This document shows positions 6,773 through 27,000 of a stretch of 63,161 nucleotides of DNA, one piece after another. Position numbers and translations under genes: made by a program. Location: assembly GCA_028288965.1 (NCBI GenBank), contig JAQGHD010000025.1:1-63161 (forward strand), written 5' to 3'. Below the pieces are notes generated by a model that saw nothing but the letters and a program-made list of their open reading frames with translations, had not been told where the DNA came from and did not search any database. How positions within the stretch are numbered: the stretch's first letter is position 1; the number at the start of each line of letters is the position of its first letter. The DNA comes from Candidatus Saccharimonadota bacterium. GTDB lineage: Bacteria > Patescibacteriota > Saccharimonadia > Saccharimonadales > JAQGHD01.

Positions 6773-7570
6773 CTAGATGTCTAAATCGATGCTCACCGGG
6801 CAATGATCCGAGCCCATGACGTCTGGGTGAATGTCGGCAGCCTTAACTTTATCTTTAAGGCTGGCTGAAACCAGAATGTAATCTATACGCCAGCCGACGT
6901 TGCGAGCCCGAGCGTTAGCAAAGTGACTCCACCAGGTGTAAAAGCCCTTGCCCTGCTTGAACATACGCAGGCTATCGACGAACCCGGCATCAATAAAGTT
7001 CTGAAAGCCCTCCCGTTCTTCATTAGTAAAGCCTTTTTTACCAATGTTGGCTTTGTCGTTGGCTAGGTCGTCTGGCGTATGAGCAACGTTGAGGTCGCCA
7101 CTAAACACAACGGGCTTGGTTTTTTCCAGTTGTTTTACATAGGCCAAAAAAGCTGGATCCCATTGCTTGTGACGGAGCGGTATCCGCGTCAGGTCGTCTT
7201 TGGCATTGGGTGTATAAACAGTGACAAAATAAAACCCCGGGTACTCGGCGGCAATAATCCGACCCTCTTTGTTTGGGTCACCATAGTTATCGGCGGCCAG
7301 TTTGTATTTGGCGATGATATCTTTAGGCAGCCCGTGAATCACCTGCAACGGTTCGGGCTTGCTAAAAATAGCCGTGCCGCTGTAACCCTTTTTTTCTGCC
7401 GAAAACCAAAATTCTTTGTAAGCTGGGGCCTCTACCGCTGATTGATCTTGCTGAGCCTTGGTCTCTTGAATACCTAAAACATCAGGCTGGTGTTTATCAA
7501 TAAACGGTATAAACATGCCTTTTCGATCCACGGCACGAATTCCGTTCACATTCCAGGAATAAATCTTCAT
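6773..7570 (-). CDS. xthA: Exodeoxyribonuclease III (AP endonuclease, EEP family).
   Basis: N-terminal 'MKIYSWNVNGIRA'. C-terminal 'GWRIDYILVS...SDHCPV' is the typical Exo III signature. Confidence 0.85.
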   Translation of the reverse strand: MKIYSWNVNGIRAVDRKGMFIPFIDKHQPDVLGIQETKAQQDQSAVEAPAYKEFWFSAEKKGYSGTAIFSKPEPLQVIHGLPKDIIAKYKLAADNYGDPNKEGRIIAAEYPGFYFVTVYTPNAKDDLTRIPLRHKQWDPAFLAYVKQLEKTKPVVFSGDLNVAHTPDDLANDKANIGKKGFTNEEREGFQNFIDAGFVDSLRMFKQGKGFYTWWSHFANARARNVGWRIDYILVSASLKDKVKAADIHPDVMGSDHCPVSIDLDI

Positions 7571-7665
7571 GCCTTGATTGTAACCGAAGTCATATCAGTG
7601 AAGCAAAAAGCAAGTATATAAATTATATAGTTGCATATTCAACAAATCGATATGAAAATAAAGTT

Positions 7666-8457
7666 ATGGCAAAACGAAGGCAATCCAAGAAACAGCTGCA
7701 AGCCGAAGTACACAGACTTCAGCAAGAAAGTTCTCCATATATAGAACTTGCTCGCGAGATTCAAGATAACATTGCTAGAATTGCCATGACTGGTACGGCA
7801 CAAGATGCTGCTTTGGTTGAGCTATTTGATAGCATTGGTCGCGAGGCCCGCCAAGAGGCTGCGAGAAATGTTTTTTCAACGCTGTCACTAGAGAATCGTT
7901 GGCATATAATTGCAACAGTATTTTCTGATGATGAAATTAAGACAGCTCTTGAACTGCAACACGAAAGTCTTCATAGGCAGGCCGCCAGGAAAAACTATTA
8001 TGCGGAGATTGCTCGTGAAGCGCAGGAGCATAATCGCCTGGACCTTTTGAACTTAGATTTTGGAGTGCCATTGGTGCTTGGTTTATTTCGTTCGGCAGAA
8101 GTCGCGCAAGTAGTCCGTACCGGCAAAAAATCTCAAATATGTGCGCGTCGGTTATCATTATTATCAACAAATGATAAAGGAGTTTTCCAGGTTATTAACG
8201 ATGAATTTAATCCACATGGAAGTTTTCGAATTGGCGCAGACTATAATGAGGAGATTTGGCGTAAACAAGAGCGTTTTGATGGCCATAGTCTAATTCGGCC
8301 GGGGTTTCAACTTGAAAACTCTGACAGCTTGCAATTTCAATCGGCGCTTTATGTAGAGAGTAGAGTGGATTTTCAATCGAATAATCAGACCCATACCGGA
8401 TTATTAAGTCTTGGCTACGCTGTGGTGGGCGATTATGACGTCTTTACTGAAAGCTAG
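7666..8457 (+). CDS. Hypothetical protein encoded by an AT-rich gene.
   Basis: 263-aa ORF. Composition is visibly lower in GC than the neighbouring genes. No recognisable motif. Confidence 0.5.
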   Translation: MAKRRQSKKQLQAEVHRLQQESSPYIELAREIQDNIARIAMTGTAQDAALVELFDSIGREARQEAARNVFSTLSLENRWHIIATVFSDDEIKTALELQHESLHRQAARKNYYAEIAREAQEHNRLDLLNLDFGVPLVLGLFRSAEVAQVVRTGKKSQICARRLSLLSTNDKGVFQVINDEFNPHGSFRIGADYNEEIWRKQERFDGHSLIRPGFQLENSDSLQFQSALYVESRVDFQSNNQTHTGLLSLGYAVVGDYDVFTES

Positions 8458-8535
8458 ACATAGCAATCTTCCCTGTTATAGCTGTTGACCAAAAGTTTGT
8501 TTTATAGTATAAATATTTAGCTAGTCTATTGGCAA

Positions 8536-10581
8536 ATGAGAGAGGATTACCTCGCAATGGGCAGTGTACCTTATTTCCTCATACCCCCTTTGGTGGTGTT
8601 GGCCCTCGCGGTCATCATCGCCCTCCATTCGTTCCACTCGATTGGCCCGAGTGAGATTGGCTTGGTCACCAAGCGAGTCGGCAAGAAGCTCGGACAAGAC
8701 CAGCTCATTGCTATGAACGGCGAAGCTGGCTACCAGGCCGAGTTGCTGATGCCAGGCGTGAACTTCAAGCTCTGGCCCTTGTTCGCCGTCAAGCGGTATC
8801 CACGCGTGCAGGTGCCACCGGACCATATCGGTCTGGTCATCTCGCAGGTCGGACAGTCACTGCCGAATGGCGCCAAGTCAGCGGTCTACAAACCTAAGTT
8901 CGGCGACTTCGCGGATCTCGCGCTGTTCATGAGCGAAGGCGGCCAACGTGGTGTCCAGCGAAAGGTGCTGAACCCAGGTGCCACGGCGCCGATCCATCCG
9001 ATCGGATTCGTGGTGGTTACCAGCGAAGGCACTTTCGGCGAAGTTCTGTCGGATGCAACCGATGAAGCGATTGGTCAGATCGATAAGGATTCGCTCAAGG
9101 TCCTACACATCACGCCGCAAGGAGATCTCGACGTCGTCGGTGTGGTAACGACGCTCGAAGGTCCGCCTTCGAACGATTTTGCCAGCCGCATCGGCGGATT
9201 CGACGATATTGAAGCACTCGAGGAAGCACTCCAAACGGCACCAGAGGGAGACTTCGCTTCAAGCATCATCCAAAAGGTGCTGGCGTCCAAAAACCACCTA
9301 CACGACAACTATCAGGACTTCCAGGCGTTCATCGCCAACGGCGGTCGTATCGGTTTGCAGCACGACCCGCTCTCTTACGGAGCGTATGTGCTCAACCCGT
9401 TGCTTGTCAAAGTTGAGCTGGTGCCAATGCTCGTCGTCCTTCAAGGCGAAGTTGCGGTTATCAAGGCCTACGTGGGCTTGCCAACGAAGGACACTTCCGG
9501 CGAAGAGTTCAAGTTCGGTTCAATCGTGTCTCCTGGGCATCAAGGAATTTGGTCGGAGCCACTGCGCACCGGTAAATATCCCCTCAACCCCCGGATATAC
9601 GGTGCCGAGATCGTGCCAACGTCGATCCTGACGCTCAACTGGTCGCAAGCCAACAGCGAGGCTCACGACCTCGACAAGCGTTTGTCACCGATCGATGCCA
9701 AGAGCAAGGAAGCGTTCGACTTCAGCATTGACCTCCAGGTTCAGATCCACGTGCCTGACACCAAGGCACCGAAGGTCATCAGCATGGTTGGCACCATGGC
9801 GAACCTGGTCAACGAAGTGCTCCAATCCGCGGTGGGCAACTACTTCCGCAACGCGCTTCAGGAACTCGGAGCTACCGAGTTTATAGAGAAGCGGGGCAAA
9901 GTACAGAAGGATGCAGAGGCATACATCGACACATACCTCGGTGATTACCAGGTGGAGACCAAAGGTGTCTATATCCAGGACGTCGTGTTCCCGAAAAACC
10001 TCGTGGACGTGCTTACCAGTCGTGAAATCGCGGCTCAAGAGAAGCAGACCTATGTCAACCAACAAGCGGCGCAGGAGGCGCGCGTAGCACTAGAGCAGCA
10101 ACGCGGTATCGCCGAAATGCAGAGCGAGTTGGCCAGGGCAAACGTCTCGGTTCAGATCGAAACGTCCAATGCAGCGGCAGCAGTTGCCAAGGCAGAAGGT
10201 GATGCCAAGGTCACAGTTGCCCTCGGCGAAGCCGAAGCGACCAAGATCACGGCCATCGGTGCTGCCGAAGCCTCAGCGGAGGAAGCCAAAGGTCTCGCCA
10301 AAGCCAAGGCCTACGAGGCGCAGAAGCACTCCATCGGTGGCGAGCAAACAGCCCTTGTGGCCGTGCTTCACGAGATCTCGGACGGGAACGTCAAGATCAC
10401 GCCAGACATTGTTGTCGGCGGCGAAGGCGGCATTCTCGGGGGTATCGGAGCCATGCTCATGCGAAGCCTCGAATCGAACGGCCGCAGCACCAACGGTGCA
10501 GCTAAGGCTCCGGAGCCCGAATTGGCCACAGTAAGCGTGTCCGATGCGGACGAAGAGAAGAAGCCCGATTCGGGTAACTAA
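8536..10581 (+). CDS. SPFH/Band-7 (flotillin-like) membrane protein with an Ala/Glu-rich coiled-coil tail.
   Basis: 681 aa. N-terminal TM segment. The C-terminal 'EAEATKITAIGAAEASAEEAKGLAKAKAYEAQK' repeats are typical of flotillin/YqiK-type proteins. The true start may be the internal Met at ~8560. Confidence 0.65.
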   Translation: MREDYLAMGSVPYFLIPPLVVLALAVIIALHSFHSIGPSEIGLVTKRVGKKLGQDQLIAMNGEAGYQAELLMPGVNFKLWPLFAVKRYPRVQVPPDHIGLVISQVGQSLPNGAKSAVYKPKFGDFADLALFMSEGGQRGVQRKVLNPGATAPIHPIGFVVVTSEGTFGEVLSDATDEAIGQIDKDSLKVLHITPQGDLDVVGVVTTLEGPPSNDFASRIGGFDDIEALEEALQTAPEGDFASSIIQKVLASKNHLHDNYQDFQAFIANGGRIGLQHDPLSYGAYVLNPLLVKVELVPMLVVLQGEVAVIKAYVGLPTKDTSGEEFKFGSIVSPGHQGIWSEPLRTGKYPLNPRIYGAEIVPTSILTLNWSQANSEAHDLDKRLSPIDAKSKEAFDFSIDLQVQIHVPDTKAPKVISMVGTMANLVNEVLQSAVGNYFRNALQELGATEFIEKRGKVQKDAEAYIDTYLGDYQVETKGVYIQDVVFPKNLVDVLTSREIAAQEKQTYVNQQAAQEARVALEQQRGIAEMQSELARANVSVQIETSNAAAAVAKAEGDAKVTVALGEAEATKITAIGAAEASAEEAKGLAKAKAYEAQKHSIGGEQTALVAVLHEISDGNVKITPDIVVGGEGGILGGIGAMLMRSLESNGRSTNGAAKAPEPELATVSVSDADEEKKPDSGN

Positions 10582-10772
10582 GGAAGAAGAACTAGTTGAT
10601 CCGGTCTAGGACGCAAGTCAATATCGGATTACCGACAAGTGAAGCGGTATCCAGCGTTTATTCGTCGATATGGCGAAAAACGAATTCACTCGTTAGGGAG
10701 ACACGTTAATCTCCTGTGAGGGGGAAGTTTTGCTTGATCGCATCCAGCGATCGCTTAACTTTTCTCCTCACC

Positions 10773-10828
10773 TACCGACCACGGATAACAACCAGCCGTG
10801 CTGATGAGTCGTAGACGACGAATCGGTA
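10773..10828 (+). ncRNA. Hammerhead-ribozyme-like (type III) fold with a non-canonical 15.1/16.1 pair.
   Basis: Stem III TACCGA(10773-78)/TCGGTA(10823-28). Position 17 is C10779. Stem I CACGG(10780-84) with an 11-nt loop and CCGTG(10796-800). CUGAUGA at 10801-07. Stem II GTCG-UAGA-CGAC (10808-19). GAA at 10820-22. Folded by hand only. Confidence 0.4.
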
Positions 10829-10916
10829 TTCAACTTTACGCTACTCCATATAGGCGAAACTGCATTAGAACAACATGGGTAGAGAAAATCAGCGCAATTT
10901 GTTAGACTAACAAGCA

Positions 10917-11630
10917 ATGAAAACTGCCTATCAACGGATTCTTTTAAAACTTTCTGGTGAGCAGTTGGCGGGTAAATATGAGGTCGGTATCGACCCGGAA
11001 GTAGCTGGGTTTTTTGCTAATGAGATCAAAAGAGTTTTGTCCTCTGACTGCCAGGTAGCCATTGTGGTAGGTGGCGGTAACATGGTTCGTGGGGCTGAGG
11101 TGGCTGGCCAAGGCATCCGCCGTGTAACCGGGGATCAAATGGGCATGCTCAGCGGCTTGATTAACTCTATGGCTATCACCGATATATTTGAGGCCCACCA
11201 AATCGCCACGCGCTGTTTGAGCAACATTTTTGCTGACCAGGTGGCTGAGGCTTATTCATATAGACGAGCTATTAAGCACCTGGAACACGACCGGGTGGTA
11301 ATTATTGCCGGTGGTATTGGCCGCCCGTACTTTACCCATGACACAGCGGCAGTTAACCTGGCGTTGGAGTTAAGCTGCGACGTTATGATCAAGGCCACCA
11401 AGGTGGATGCCGTATACGACAAAGATCCTAAAAAGCATACAGACGCTGTAAAGATCACCAACCTTCCCTACCAGCAAGCCGTCCAGGATGAGGCTATAAA
11501 GATCATGGACAAAGCCGCTTTGGGACTAGCCATGGAACAACACATGCCAGTGATTATTTACGACGCTATGAAGCCAGGTAATACTCTCAAGGTAGTTCAA
11601 GGCGAACCAGTCGGCACCACCATTAAATGA
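10917..11630 (+). CDS. pyrH: UMP kinase.
   Basis: 'RILLKLSGEQLAG', 'VVGGGNMVRG' and 'ATKVDAVYDKDP' are classic PyrH motifs. Confidence 0.9.
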   Translation: MKTAYQRILLKLSGEQLAGKYEVGIDPEVAGFFANEIKRVLSSDCQVAIVVGGGNMVRGAEVAGQGIRRVTGDQMGMLSGLINSMAITDIFEAHQIATRCLSNIFADQVAEAYSYRRAIKHLEHDRVVIIAGGIGRPYFTHDTAAVNLALELSCDVMIKATKVDAVYDKDPKKHTDAVKITNLPYQQAVQDEAIKIMDKAALGLAMEQHMPVIIYDAMKPGNTLKVVQGEPVGTTIK

Positions 11631-12931: not shown

Positions 12932-12954
12932 GATGGCGGAGGGAGAGGGATTCG
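12932..12954 (-). repeat. Perfect 23-bp direct duplicate of the tRNA-Ser 3' end plus 2 nt of flank (identical to 13065-13087).
   Basis: gatggcggagggagagggattcg appears twice. The copy lies ~110 bp downstream (in tRNA orientation) of the intact tRNA-Ser. Confidence 0.65.
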
Positions 12955-13066
12955 CTTTACTCGATCAATCTCGTAAAGTGCCGGGGTATGCCACCAGGCA
13001 TGCCCGTTCGAATCCCTACTTTTTCATCATCGTTCATGCCCCTGCCGTTAGCAGGGCCACAAACGA

Positions 13067-13156
13067 TGGCGGAGGGAGAGGGATTCGAACCCTCGAGAGA
13101 CTTGCGCCTCAACCTACTTTCCAAGCAGGCGCCATAGACCGCTAGGCGACCCCTCC
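13067..13156 (-). tRNA. tRNA-Ser (anticodon GGA), type II, CCA encoded.
   Basis: Acceptor GGAGGGG/TCCCTCC with a G-U closing pair. U8. 3-bp D stem. Anticodon stem-loop CCTGC-TTGGAAA-GTAGG. Long variable arm. T arm GAGGGTTCGAATCCCTC. Discriminator G. Confidence 0.8.
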
Positions 13157-24006: not shown

Positions 24007-27000
24007 ATGAGGGTAAAAAAGCCGAACATAAACAAGGCGAGTATTGGTAAGCTATTAGATCAACTACGCCACTATTGGACGGCTACTGCGCTGCCCTTTC
24101 TCTTGAAAGCCTTCAAAAAATTCCGGCACCAGGGCATTCGGATCAGCAAACGTGTTGCCCGGTTTACCTGGAAGCATACCAAGCAGACTTCCCTCTTTTT
24201 GCATCGGCATGGTGCTAGGCGGCCGCATTCGTATCTGCGGAACAAATGGAAATGGTATGACCGGTGGCATGAATGGCAGTATCACCAGCATGTCCATACA
24301 GCTATTGCAGCTGTATATGTGCTTATTGTTGGCTCAATTATTTTTGTGGCCTATCAAAAAACTTTTGCTACTCCCGATCTAACTGATACCTGGGATTTCA
24401 CAGCTTCATCTAATTACACCTTTGATAGCGGTGCCGAAGCCAGCGGCAGTACCGCCCGGCTCAAGGCTCAAAACTATACGAGTGATAGCAACACCAAAGC
24501 CTTGTATCACTTTGATAGTAATTCTGGTACCACGGCCACCGATAGCTCAGTAAATGGTAATAATGCCACTACCACTGGCTCGCCTTCGTGGGTGGCGGGC
24601 CAACTCAATAATGCGATAAGTCTTAATGGTTCTACCCAGTGGTTGAGCGCCCCCGATACGGCCTCATTGTCACTGAGCCAGCCCAACACGCTGGAAGCTT
24701 GGGTAAAGTTTGGCTCCAGCTTTTCAGGCAGTAGTCACGATGGCGACCAGGTAATTTTAGACAAAGGTGCCTACAAACTGTATTACGATCACACCTCAGG
24801 CAAAATCAACTATGAAATGGCTAAGTCAACTGCCACCACCTGGACGGCTCGAGCCGGCAATGACATTAACGGCAGTTGGGATACCAGCGGCAAAGATTCC
24901 GTGCTGAGCCAAGCAGTCATTGGCAGCAATATTTATGCTGGGCTTGGCACTGGTAGTGGTGACGCCGAGGTCTGGAAATGGACTGGCAGTTCCTGGTCAA
25001 TAATTGGCGGTGACGGTATTAATTCCAGCTGGGATAAAAACCATGAAGCGGTTGATTCAATGTATGCCAACGGAACAATTTTGTACGTTGGGCTGGGATC
25101 AACCTTAAATGCTGATGCTGAAGTGTGGAGCTGCGATACTAGCACCAACTGCACCACCTGGACCAAGATTGGCGGTGACAATGTAAACAGTAGCTGGGGT
25201 GATACTTCCGATGTCTATTCTTTATGGTACGGCAACATAGGCGCCGGTAATTTCTTGTATGCCGGTCTCGGCAGCAGCGCTGTTAATGGTGATGGTGATT
25301 TGTGGCGCTGCACGCCATCTGGCGCAACGTGTTCTACGTGGACAAAAATCGGTGGCGATAACCTCAACAGCGGTTGGGCAAACGGCAACGAAGCAGTCTA
25401 TGCCATTAACTACGATGGTACGGGCCTGGTGGTCGGCCTGGGTAACACCGGAACTGATGGCCAAGTGTATCGCTGGAACGGCACGGCTTGGACAAAAATG
25501 GGCGGCGGCGGTTCAGCCGTCAATGCCAGCTGGAGTTCAGGTATTAATTCTGTCCACGCTATCACGGTGTTTGGAGGTAATATCTACGTTGCTACAGGTG
25601 ATGATAACGGTGATGCCGAAATTTGGAAGAGTTCTACCGCCGCCTATAGCTGGGTCAAAATTGGTGGCGACAATATCAACTCCGGCTGGGCTGGGACCAC
25701 CGATAAAATAGCCTATAGCCTAGCCAATGACGGCACCAACGTTTACGCCGCCGTTGATACGACAGCCTGGAAATGGAATGGGACGGCCTGGTCGCAAATA
25801 GCTGGTGGTAGTATAAATGGCAGCTGGAGTGCCGGGTTATCACTCAACTCGTTGATGTTTAGTGGTTCAACTCTGTACGGTGGGCTCCATGATGCCTTGA
25901 CGTTTGGGACATATGGTACTTCTGGAGAGTGGACCTTCAACGGTACGACTTGGACGAAAATTGGTGGTGATTACATGAATAACAGCTGGTCGTCCGAAGT
26001 GTATAGCCAAGTAAGCAGCATGGCGACCTATAACGGTAGTTTGTATGCCGGCGTCAGCACCCATGGTGGTACCCTGGGTAAATCAAACGTCTTTAAGTAC
26101 GACGGTACCAGCTGGAGCGTGGTGGGCGGTAGCGGACTGAATTCCTCGTGGACAAGTGGCTTTGGTGGTTTGTACGGCGAGATCTATGCCTTGATAGAGT
26201 ATAAAGGCAATCTGTATGCGGGTATCTCTGGTGCAAACGGTGGCAGCGGCGAGCTATGGAAATACGATGGTACTACCTGGAGCAAAGTTGGCGGCGATGG
26301 CGTTAACTCCAGCTGGGCCGATCTTACTTATGAATCGGTACAATCCTTGGCGGTGTATAACGGCAACTTATATGCTGGATTGGGAATAAGTCCTGGTGAT
26401 GCTGAGCTATGGAAATACGACGGCACCACCTGGAGCAGAGTTGGTGGCGATGGCATTAACTCCAGCTGGACAAATCTTACCTATCAGACAGTGCAGTCGC
26501 AGACAGTCTATAAGGGAAAGCTGTATGTGGGACTGGGTAATGGCAGCAATACGTTGGCCAGAGTTTGGAGCTATGACGGTACAAACTGGGTAGCGGTCGG
26601 CGGTAATTCTATTAACAGCTCGTGGGGATCTGGCCCAACGGAAGTTGACTCACTAGTAGCCTATAACGGCGACTTGTATGCTGGTTTGGGTAGCTCGCTA
26701 GCTACCGGTAGTACTGAAGTCTGGAAATACAATGATGTCAGTAACACGTGGACACGCATTGGCGGTGCCAGCCTGAATGCCAGTTGGTCGTCCGCCAGTA
26801 CCTATATCAGCGTAAAAGCCCTAACGGTTTATAATGGTGAATTATATGCCGGCATAGGCGGCTCGACTATTAACAGTGATGGTTCAGTTTGGAAATACAA
26901 TGGTTCAGTGTGGAGCCAAGTCGGCGGTAATGATCTAAACGGCGGCTGGTCCACAACGGATAATCTTGAATCGATAGGCACCTTAACCGTATTTAATGGC

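Follow-up and report, generated by a model that had tools for sequence, protein, structure and literature searches.

The intergenic gap upstream of pyrH in the Saccharibacteria contig analysed here (the window, 63,161 nt in its full length) raises the question of whether the motif at 10773-10828 is a hammerhead ribozyme and, given that its core-adjacent pair departs from the consensus, what such an element may do in this genome. The gap measures 335 nt, from the upstream stop at 10581 to the pyrH ATG at 10917, and the motif lies within it on the forward strand, its elements following one another in the order of a type III hammerhead. Stem III comprises six Watson-Crick pairs (TACCGA, 10773-10778, with TCGGTA, 10823-10828) and is followed by position 17 (C10779), cleavage being predicted between 10779 and 10780. 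Stem I (CACGG, 10780-10784, with CCGTG, 10796-10800; five Watson-Crick pairs) is closed by an 11-nt loop 1 (ATAACAACCAG, 10785-10795), and the core CTGATGA (CUGAUGA, 10801-10807) stands directly 3' of it. Stem II (GTCG, 10808-10811, with CGAC, 10816-10819; four Watson-Crick pairs) includes the G10.1-C11.1 pair and carries the 4-nt loop 2 TAGA (10812-10815), and GAA (G12-A13-A14, 10820-10822) separates stems II and III. All 15 of the 15 pairs (6+5+4 for stems III, I and II) are Watson-Crick. This layout, including the length of the gap and an exchanged 15.1/16.1 pair, had been proposed in a sequence-only reading of the locus and proved exact in every element when the sequence was read again.

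Comparison with the type III consensus was extended to a homologous copy found on two metagenome contigs (L084 and L149, described below). The core C3-U4-G5-A6-N7-G8-A9 is present as CUGAUGA in the window and in L084, as is G12-A13-A14, and position 17 is not G in either (C10779 in the window, A in L084). Both copies form a three-helix junction in which stems I and II are loop-capped, stem III is open and the G10.1-C11.1 pair is present, with lengths of 5, 4 and 6 pairs for stems I, II and III. The departure concerns the core-adjacent pair, which in the window is formed by U10823 (15.1) and A10778 (16.1), that is U-A instead of A-U, giving the triplet GAC, whereas L084 and L149 have the canonical A15.1-U16.1. 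Because this pair breaks the consensus, the window copy was classed by descent and not by consensus, as a type III hammerhead-family motif of the variant U15.1-A16.1; the assignment was based on the reading of the sequence, a descriptor scan, shuffles and the homologue.

The significance of the arrangement was evaluated with a descriptor that demanded the type III order, the core CUGANGA, GAA, H17 and any Watson-Crick pair at 15.1/16.1. The site at 10773-10828 was its sole match in the window, even with the stems relaxed to 3/2/3, and a scan of both strands of about 1.9 Mb of other loci added nothing but the sites homologous to it in L084 and L149. Shuffling of the window with its dinucleotides preserved (400 shuffles, 50.5 Mb scanned) gave rise to 0 matches with stems of at least 4/3/4, G-U pairs being allowed, and 3 matches at 4/3/3, as against the observed stems of 5/4/6, all Watson-Crick. 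The lack of shuffle matches and the observed stem lengths together place the expected number per window well below 0.0025. In an Rfam search of the gap, Hammerhead_3 (RF00008) was the only family to match; it scored 21.6 bits, below the gathering score of 48.5, in a local alignment that covered 10780-10822 and left out stem III, the E-value being 0.034 when 381 nt were searched and 5.6 when the search covered the whole window. No further copies of the region or of its hairpins were found elsewhere in the window.

Sixty-four metagenome loci encoding relatives of the SPFH protein whose gene precedes the gap were fetched for comparison with it. L084 alone was matched by blastn, window positions 10687-10828 aligning with L084 2102-2243 at 70% identity; a contig from a different study, L149, shares 99.5% identity with L084. 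At 2188-2243 of both contigs stands a canonical hammerhead, which reads TACAGT, A, CACGG, ATTATAATTAG, CCGTG, CTGATGA, GCTG, TAAA, CAGC, GAA, ACTGTA. It is a canonical type III element in every consensus feature, including A15.1-U16.1 and a GUA triplet, and its alignment to RF00008 was end-to-end, with 41.7 bits (gathering score 48.5) and an E-value of 8.8e-6 in a 51-kb search with all families.

Of the 56 positions, 14 distinguish the window copy from that of L084, and eight of these differences make up four double compensatory pairs. In stem III, a C-G pair of the window corresponds to A-U in L084, and an A-U pair, that of 15.1/16.1, to U-A; in stem II, U-A corresponds to C-G and C-G to U-A. 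The other 6 of the 14 are confined to the loops and to position 17, where C in the window stands against A in L084 and either base is permitted; CUGAUGA and GAA are free of differences, and every pair is preserved (100% of cells paired). The two copies also agree in part of loop 1 (AU-A-AA--AG) and of loop 2 (UARA). With 14 random substitutions on the L084 sequence, the probability of keeping all 15 pairs was 4.6e-4, and that of keeping pairs, core and H17 together was 4e-6, so that the hammerhead fold has been under selection on the lineages that connect the two copies; since the near-identity of L084 and L149 leaves two independent sequences, the branch on which each compensatory change arose is not assignable and the set is too small for R-scape-type statistics. 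A canonical homologue separated by compensatory changes makes the window element a hammerhead by descent, and on this comparative evidence the motif is a genuine member of the hammerhead family in the type III arrangement. The view of the sequence-only reading that the fold was hammerhead-derived and unlikely to have arisen by chance is consequently upheld, by the absence of comparable matches in 50.5 Mb of shuffles, by the covariation of stems II and III and by the position of the canonical homologue 3' of the same SPFH gene. Homologous copies, which it had proposed to look for, were absent from the rest of the window and present in L084 and L149.

The extent of the homology indicates to which gene the motif belongs. 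The window and L084 are similar along the SPFH gene (72% at the nucleotide level) and again in its 3' region, up to the last base of the hammerhead. Beyond this point, sequences and genes are unrelated, with pyrH in the window and an ORF starting 24 nt later in L084. Since SPFH gene, 3' region and hammerhead are all included in the nucleotide homology, which goes no further, the motif is linked to SPFH; judged by this alignment, the SPFH gene is the gene with which the hammerhead travels, in a cassette inserted just upstream of pyrH. In L084 and L149, an SPFH gene with a GC content of 0.60 is joined to flanking DNA of GC 0.44. An assembly chimera was considered as the cause of the GC jump and rejected, two separate assemblies (JGI, ENA) showing the same join of high-GC SPFH gene, hammerhead and low-GC DNA. 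Among the actinobacterial SPFH homologues (L085-L148, L150), no downstream hammerhead was detected by covariance model, Rfam or blastn. One of these homologues (L086) is followed on the minus strand, at 2792-2858, by a match resembling group II intron domain V/VI (35.5 bits, Rfam threshold 40).

The arrangement in relatives points to two neighbouring genes between which the cassette has been inserted in the window. In the three closest relatives (L081, L082 and L083), an Exo_endo_phos gene and pyrH are divergent neighbours, 50-105 bp apart. The orthologue of the former lies at 6773-7570 on the minus strand of the window (80% amino-acid identity to the relatives' gene), and the nearest other PyrH in a homology search of 5.8 billion proteins was 81% identical. 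This adjacency implies that about 3.3 kb have been inserted in the window, approximately at 7571-10885, the boundaries being set by eye from flanking similarity. The suggestion that the gap could be a remnant of mobile DNA is in agreement with this, the gap forming the 3' end of the inserted segment that separates the Exo_endo_phos gene from pyrH. The inserted segment contains an orphan ORF of 263 aa (7666-8457, forward strand), the SPFH/Band_7 gene (flotillin/YqiK-like, 681 aa, Pfam PF01145; 8536-10581, forward strand) and the 335-nt gap.

The SPFH gene has a GC content of 0.55-0.63 (0.57 overall) versus 0.49 for the window. Its nearest homologues (67-74% amino-acid identity) come from Acidimicrobiales, Ilumatobacteraceae and Microthrixaceae (Actinomycetota), on contigs of GC 0.64-0.72, and among the top 120 SPFH homologues only the window and L084/L149 proteins have a low-GC-type amino-acid composition. 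These data fit a horizontal acquisition of the SPFH gene from an Actinomycetota-related donor, the donor being inferred from composition and best hits, not from phylogeny. The orphan ORF has a GC content of about 0.42, unlike the neighbouring SPFH gene, gave no match with Pfam or PADLOC and has a single homologue, 37% identical, among 5.8 billion proteins. As a route to further cassettes it had to be abandoned, since the contig of this homologue ends right after the gene. Searches of the two inserted genes and of the L149 downstream ORF with PADLOC, Pfam and PHROGs returned the SPFH domain and one marginal PHROG match only. They gave no evidence of a defence system or prophage, and no integrase or phage gene was seen nearby.

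The association with pyrH, from which the sequence-only reading had started, thus turned out to be incidental. The pyrH gene has its own extended -10-like box (TGnTAGACT; TGTTAGACT, 10900-10908, forward strand), located 8 nt before the ATG and conserved in relatives: it was found 8-9 nt before the pyrH start in six Saccharibacteria (the window, L081, L082, L083, L002 and L003). The box probably serves as an extended -10 element from which a leaderless or near-leaderless pyrH mRNA is transcribed, and its retention argues that the hammerhead-like motif is not a pyrH leader element. No hammerhead was detected upstream of pyrH in eight Saccharibacteria loci (L001-L008) at E <= 10. The regions upstream of pyrH were in any case discarded as the place of comparison: in L081-L083 only the spacer of 50-105 bp is present, and the element having arrived with the insertion, this is the wrong region. 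Two observations had been named beforehand as speaking against a hammerhead, namely a score under the Rfam threshold and a lack of conservation of the stems in orthologous intergenic regions. The score is indeed under the threshold and the motif is absent upstream of pyrH in relatives, but it is conserved 3' of SPFH.

Conservation is not confined to the hammerhead, as the SPFH 3' region preceding it (10582-10772, forward strand) appeared structured and conserved by fold z-score, blastn and RNAalifold; the hammerhead makes up the final 56 nt of a highly structured tract of about 250 nt. Folding of the 335-nt gap gave z = -3.6, and RNAalifold predicted 33 pairs from the two sequences, 10 of them changed on both sides. 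Four forward-strand hairpins are common to the window and L084: H1 (10597-10631), H2 (10644-10665), H3 (10696-10715) and H4 (10716-10771). Several of them show compensatory changes between the two, and H3 (GGGAGA/UCUCCU) is invariant. H3, H4 and the hammerhead directly adjoin one another, the 56-nt hairpin H4 reaching to within one base of the hammerhead. Drawn from two sequences, this picture of a shared hairpin structure 5' of the hammerhead is suggestive. No Rfam family matched the 10582-10772 region, and scans for terminator-like or promoter-like sites revealed none conserved between SPFH and the hammerhead, which is co-oriented with both flanking genes in both genomes.

With respect to known hammerheads, the window copy shares with type III (RF00008, clan CL00010) the order of elements, the open stem III and closed stems I and II, the core, GAA, G10.1-C11.1 and H17. 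It differs by U15.1-A16.1 (GAC) in place of A15.1-U16.1 and by its long loop 1 of 11 nt. The same CACGG/CCGUG stem I beside CUGAUGAG occurs in phage and prophage hammerheads, which are mostly of type II (RF02276; PMC3088659). Viral contigs of IMG/VR contained a module consisting of UC, CACGG-loop-CCGUG and CUGAUGAG in 67 stretches, among them type III sites with a full-length match to R1, a type III covariance model built from the window and L084 copies, as well as type II hammerheads above the Rfam threshold (RF02276), often several per contig. The shared stem I module indicates that the Saccharibacteria element belongs to a common phage-associated stock of bacterial hammerheads. The exact loop-specific pattern had 0 matches in IMG/VR, and the A16.1 version of the module likewise 0, versus 67 for U16.1, so that the variant appears to be usually removed by selection and the flipped pair to be rare. 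Five of the IMG/VR contigs (L209, L179, L180, L208 and L175) carry 2-4 hammerheads with the CACGG/CCGUG stem I inside a few kb, in agreement with the published picture of hammerheads flanking phage genes.

A transcript-separating role has been proposed for phage hammerheads (PMC3088659), and the location of the window motif, likewise between co-directional genes in acquired DNA, fits the proposed cutting of polycistronic RNA (PMC3088659). In contrast to the phage elements, it is present as a single copy and not as tandem copies flanking a gene, and it resides on a Saccharibacteria chromosome, beside a cellular-type SPFH gene and after about 190 nt of conserved structured region. If the element works as its family does, RNA polymerase would read from SPFH through H1-H4 into the hammerhead, no conserved intrinsic terminator lying between them. 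The three-way junction would then fold, the 2'-OH of C10779 (position 17) would attack the adjacent phosphate, and the transcript would be cut between 10779 and 10780 (C10779/C10780). This would leave the SPFH mRNA with a 2',3'-cyclic phosphate at its end, immediately 3' of H4, and the RNA beyond the cut with a 5'-OH at its start, and the mRNA of the acquired SPFH gene may in this way be separated from whatever lies downstream. A ribozyme following a stop codon is also encountered in the discontinuous hammerheads of the mRNA 3' UTRs of mammalian Clec2 genes. There, as here, a cut would fix the 3' end of the mRNA or make it less stable, although those elements belong to another domain of life and have another architecture, and homology is not implied.

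How far this scheme may still operate in the window depends on the flipped pair. A natural U15.1-A16.1 hammerhead has been reported to self-cleave, less efficiently (Perreault et al. 2011, PMC3088659, section 8); it has the same flipped pair as the window copy. The weaker cleavage was attributed to the lost A15.1-G5 contact, and 15.1/16.1 mutants displayed a loss of activity of at least 10-fold (PMC3088659). In the window copy, A15.1-U16.1 would have given way to U-A by a change of both bases that keeps the pairing, a swap expected to slow cleavage by at least an order of magnitude and to shift the predicted fold towards an inactive hairpin. The predicted MFE fold of the 56-mer is this hairpin and not the hammerhead (-16.0 versus -13.9 kcal/mol, a difference of 2.1 kcal/mol). 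In it, A6 pairs with U15.1 and C3-U7 are sequestered. Predicted pair probabilities of stem III are 0.04-0.10 in the window copy versus 0.6-0.9 in L084, and the hammerhead is the predicted MFE fold both in L084 and in an in silico A-U revertant; nearest-neighbour folding models, from which all these values derive, ignore tertiary contacts and co-transcriptional folding.

Considering these data together, the window copy may be described, with a fair degree of likelihood, as an attenuated, structurally maintained ribozyme. Retention of some activity is favoured by the flip itself, which preserves pairing and needed two specific substitutions, and by the integrity of all other consensus features amid local divergence of 25-30%. 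Cleavage in this genome is probably slow or absent, and it may no longer matter there, as pyrH has its own promoter-like box. The expectation of a weakened or decayed ribozyme voiced in the sequence-only reading is in keeping with this, the swap being a known activity-reducing variant (PMC3088659) and the predicted MFE fold a competing hairpin.

A possible though doubtful alternative is that of an inactive relic, descended from a working hammerhead of the SPFH cassette, in which the swap and the competing hairpin abolished meaningful cleavage and decay has not yet gone further. The removal of the A15.1-G5 contact, with its cost of at least 10-fold in 15.1/16.1 mutants (PMC3088659), speaks for it, and so do the non-ribozyme hairpin predicted as MFE fold, from which a restored A-U pair would return the molecule to the hammerhead, the occurrence of A16.1 in 0 of the 67 stretches of the closest phage module, and the promoter-like box of pyrH, which leaves that gene in no need of processing. 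Additionally, with two sequences at hand, the other three compensatory pairs could all sit on the L084 branch. A dead element should, however, not fix a second, pairing-restoring substitution, and 15 pairs, 10 fixed core bases and H17 have been kept amid local divergence of about 25-30%. These observations lead us to prefer attenuation with a maintained structure.

In an unlikely variant of the maintained element, the flipped pair would represent tuning and not damage. U15.1 can pair with A6, which would make the RNA bistable, alternating between an active junction and an inactive hairpin, and H1-H4 with the hammerhead would constitute a composite 3'-end-forming module. Were the tuning part of this proposal true, a slow or conditional ribozyme would set how much SPFH read-through is cut before the essential pyrH. 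Were the composite module real, the roughly 250 nt of H1-H4 and hammerhead would be an undescribed module with a ribozyme in place of a terminator, possibly releasing a stable 3'-UTR RNA and carried with an SPFH gene that ultra-small CPR bacteria acquired from an Actinomycetota-related donor.

Another explanation, a very improbable one, can be based on the competing fold. The extended hairpin at 10798-10830 (GUGCUGAU-GA-GUCG-UAGA-CGAC-GA-AUCGGUAU, with tandem G-A mismatches) might itself be the functional structure, as a protein-binding, transcript-stabilising or terminating stem, the likeness to a hammerhead being historical only. It is the predicted MFE fold of the 56-mer as well as of the region with its flanks. 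Its extra helix is unconserved, since 2 of its 5 pairs are mismatched in L084 (U-U and A-A) whereas stem III is paired at 6 of 6 positions in both copies; the competing helix would accordingly result from the flip rather than reflect an ancestral function. Moreover, no T-run follows the hairpin, and the terminator scan did not report it. Finally, a chance resemblance in an ordinary intergenic spacer, to which the sub-threshold Rfam score and the E-value of 5.6 for the whole window could point, is hardly credible in view of the empty shuffles and of the homologous canonical hammerhead with its compensatory changes.

The attenuated element described here does not represent a new kind of system: its class is well known, and its core variant is rare but already documented. 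It adds a hammerhead in Candidatus Saccharibacteria, and a full-text search of the available literature found no paper pairing 'hammerhead ribozyme' with Saccharibacteria, 'hammerhead' and 'candidate phyla radiation' being paired only in the preprint and the published version of one study of RNA-polymerase insertion domains. As both copies score below the Rfam threshold, standard annotation misses real hammerheads. The canonical copy and the U15.1-A16.1 copy, whose stems are otherwise compensated, are also matched by nature and thereby offer a clean test of the importance of the most conserved pair within a natural scaffold. On a more general level, the locus is a small but concrete data point on bacterial hammerheads outside prophages, with a ribozyme that closes the 3' region of an actinobacterial-like gene in an epibiont-type genome.

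Two other features of the window were recorded independently of the motif. The 3' end of tRNA-Ser(GGA) is directly repeated over 23 nt (GATGGCGGAGGGAGAGGGATTCG, 12933-12955) at a distance of 133 nt from the intact minus-strand gene (13067-13156), and this partial duplication looks like an att-type remnant of an integrating element. Further downstream, the coding region at 24970-26790 contains at least 8 diverged copies of a repeat unit of about 150-165 nt (...TGGxxxAAxATTGGCGGTGA...AGCTGG...), which suggests a repeat-domain surface protein.
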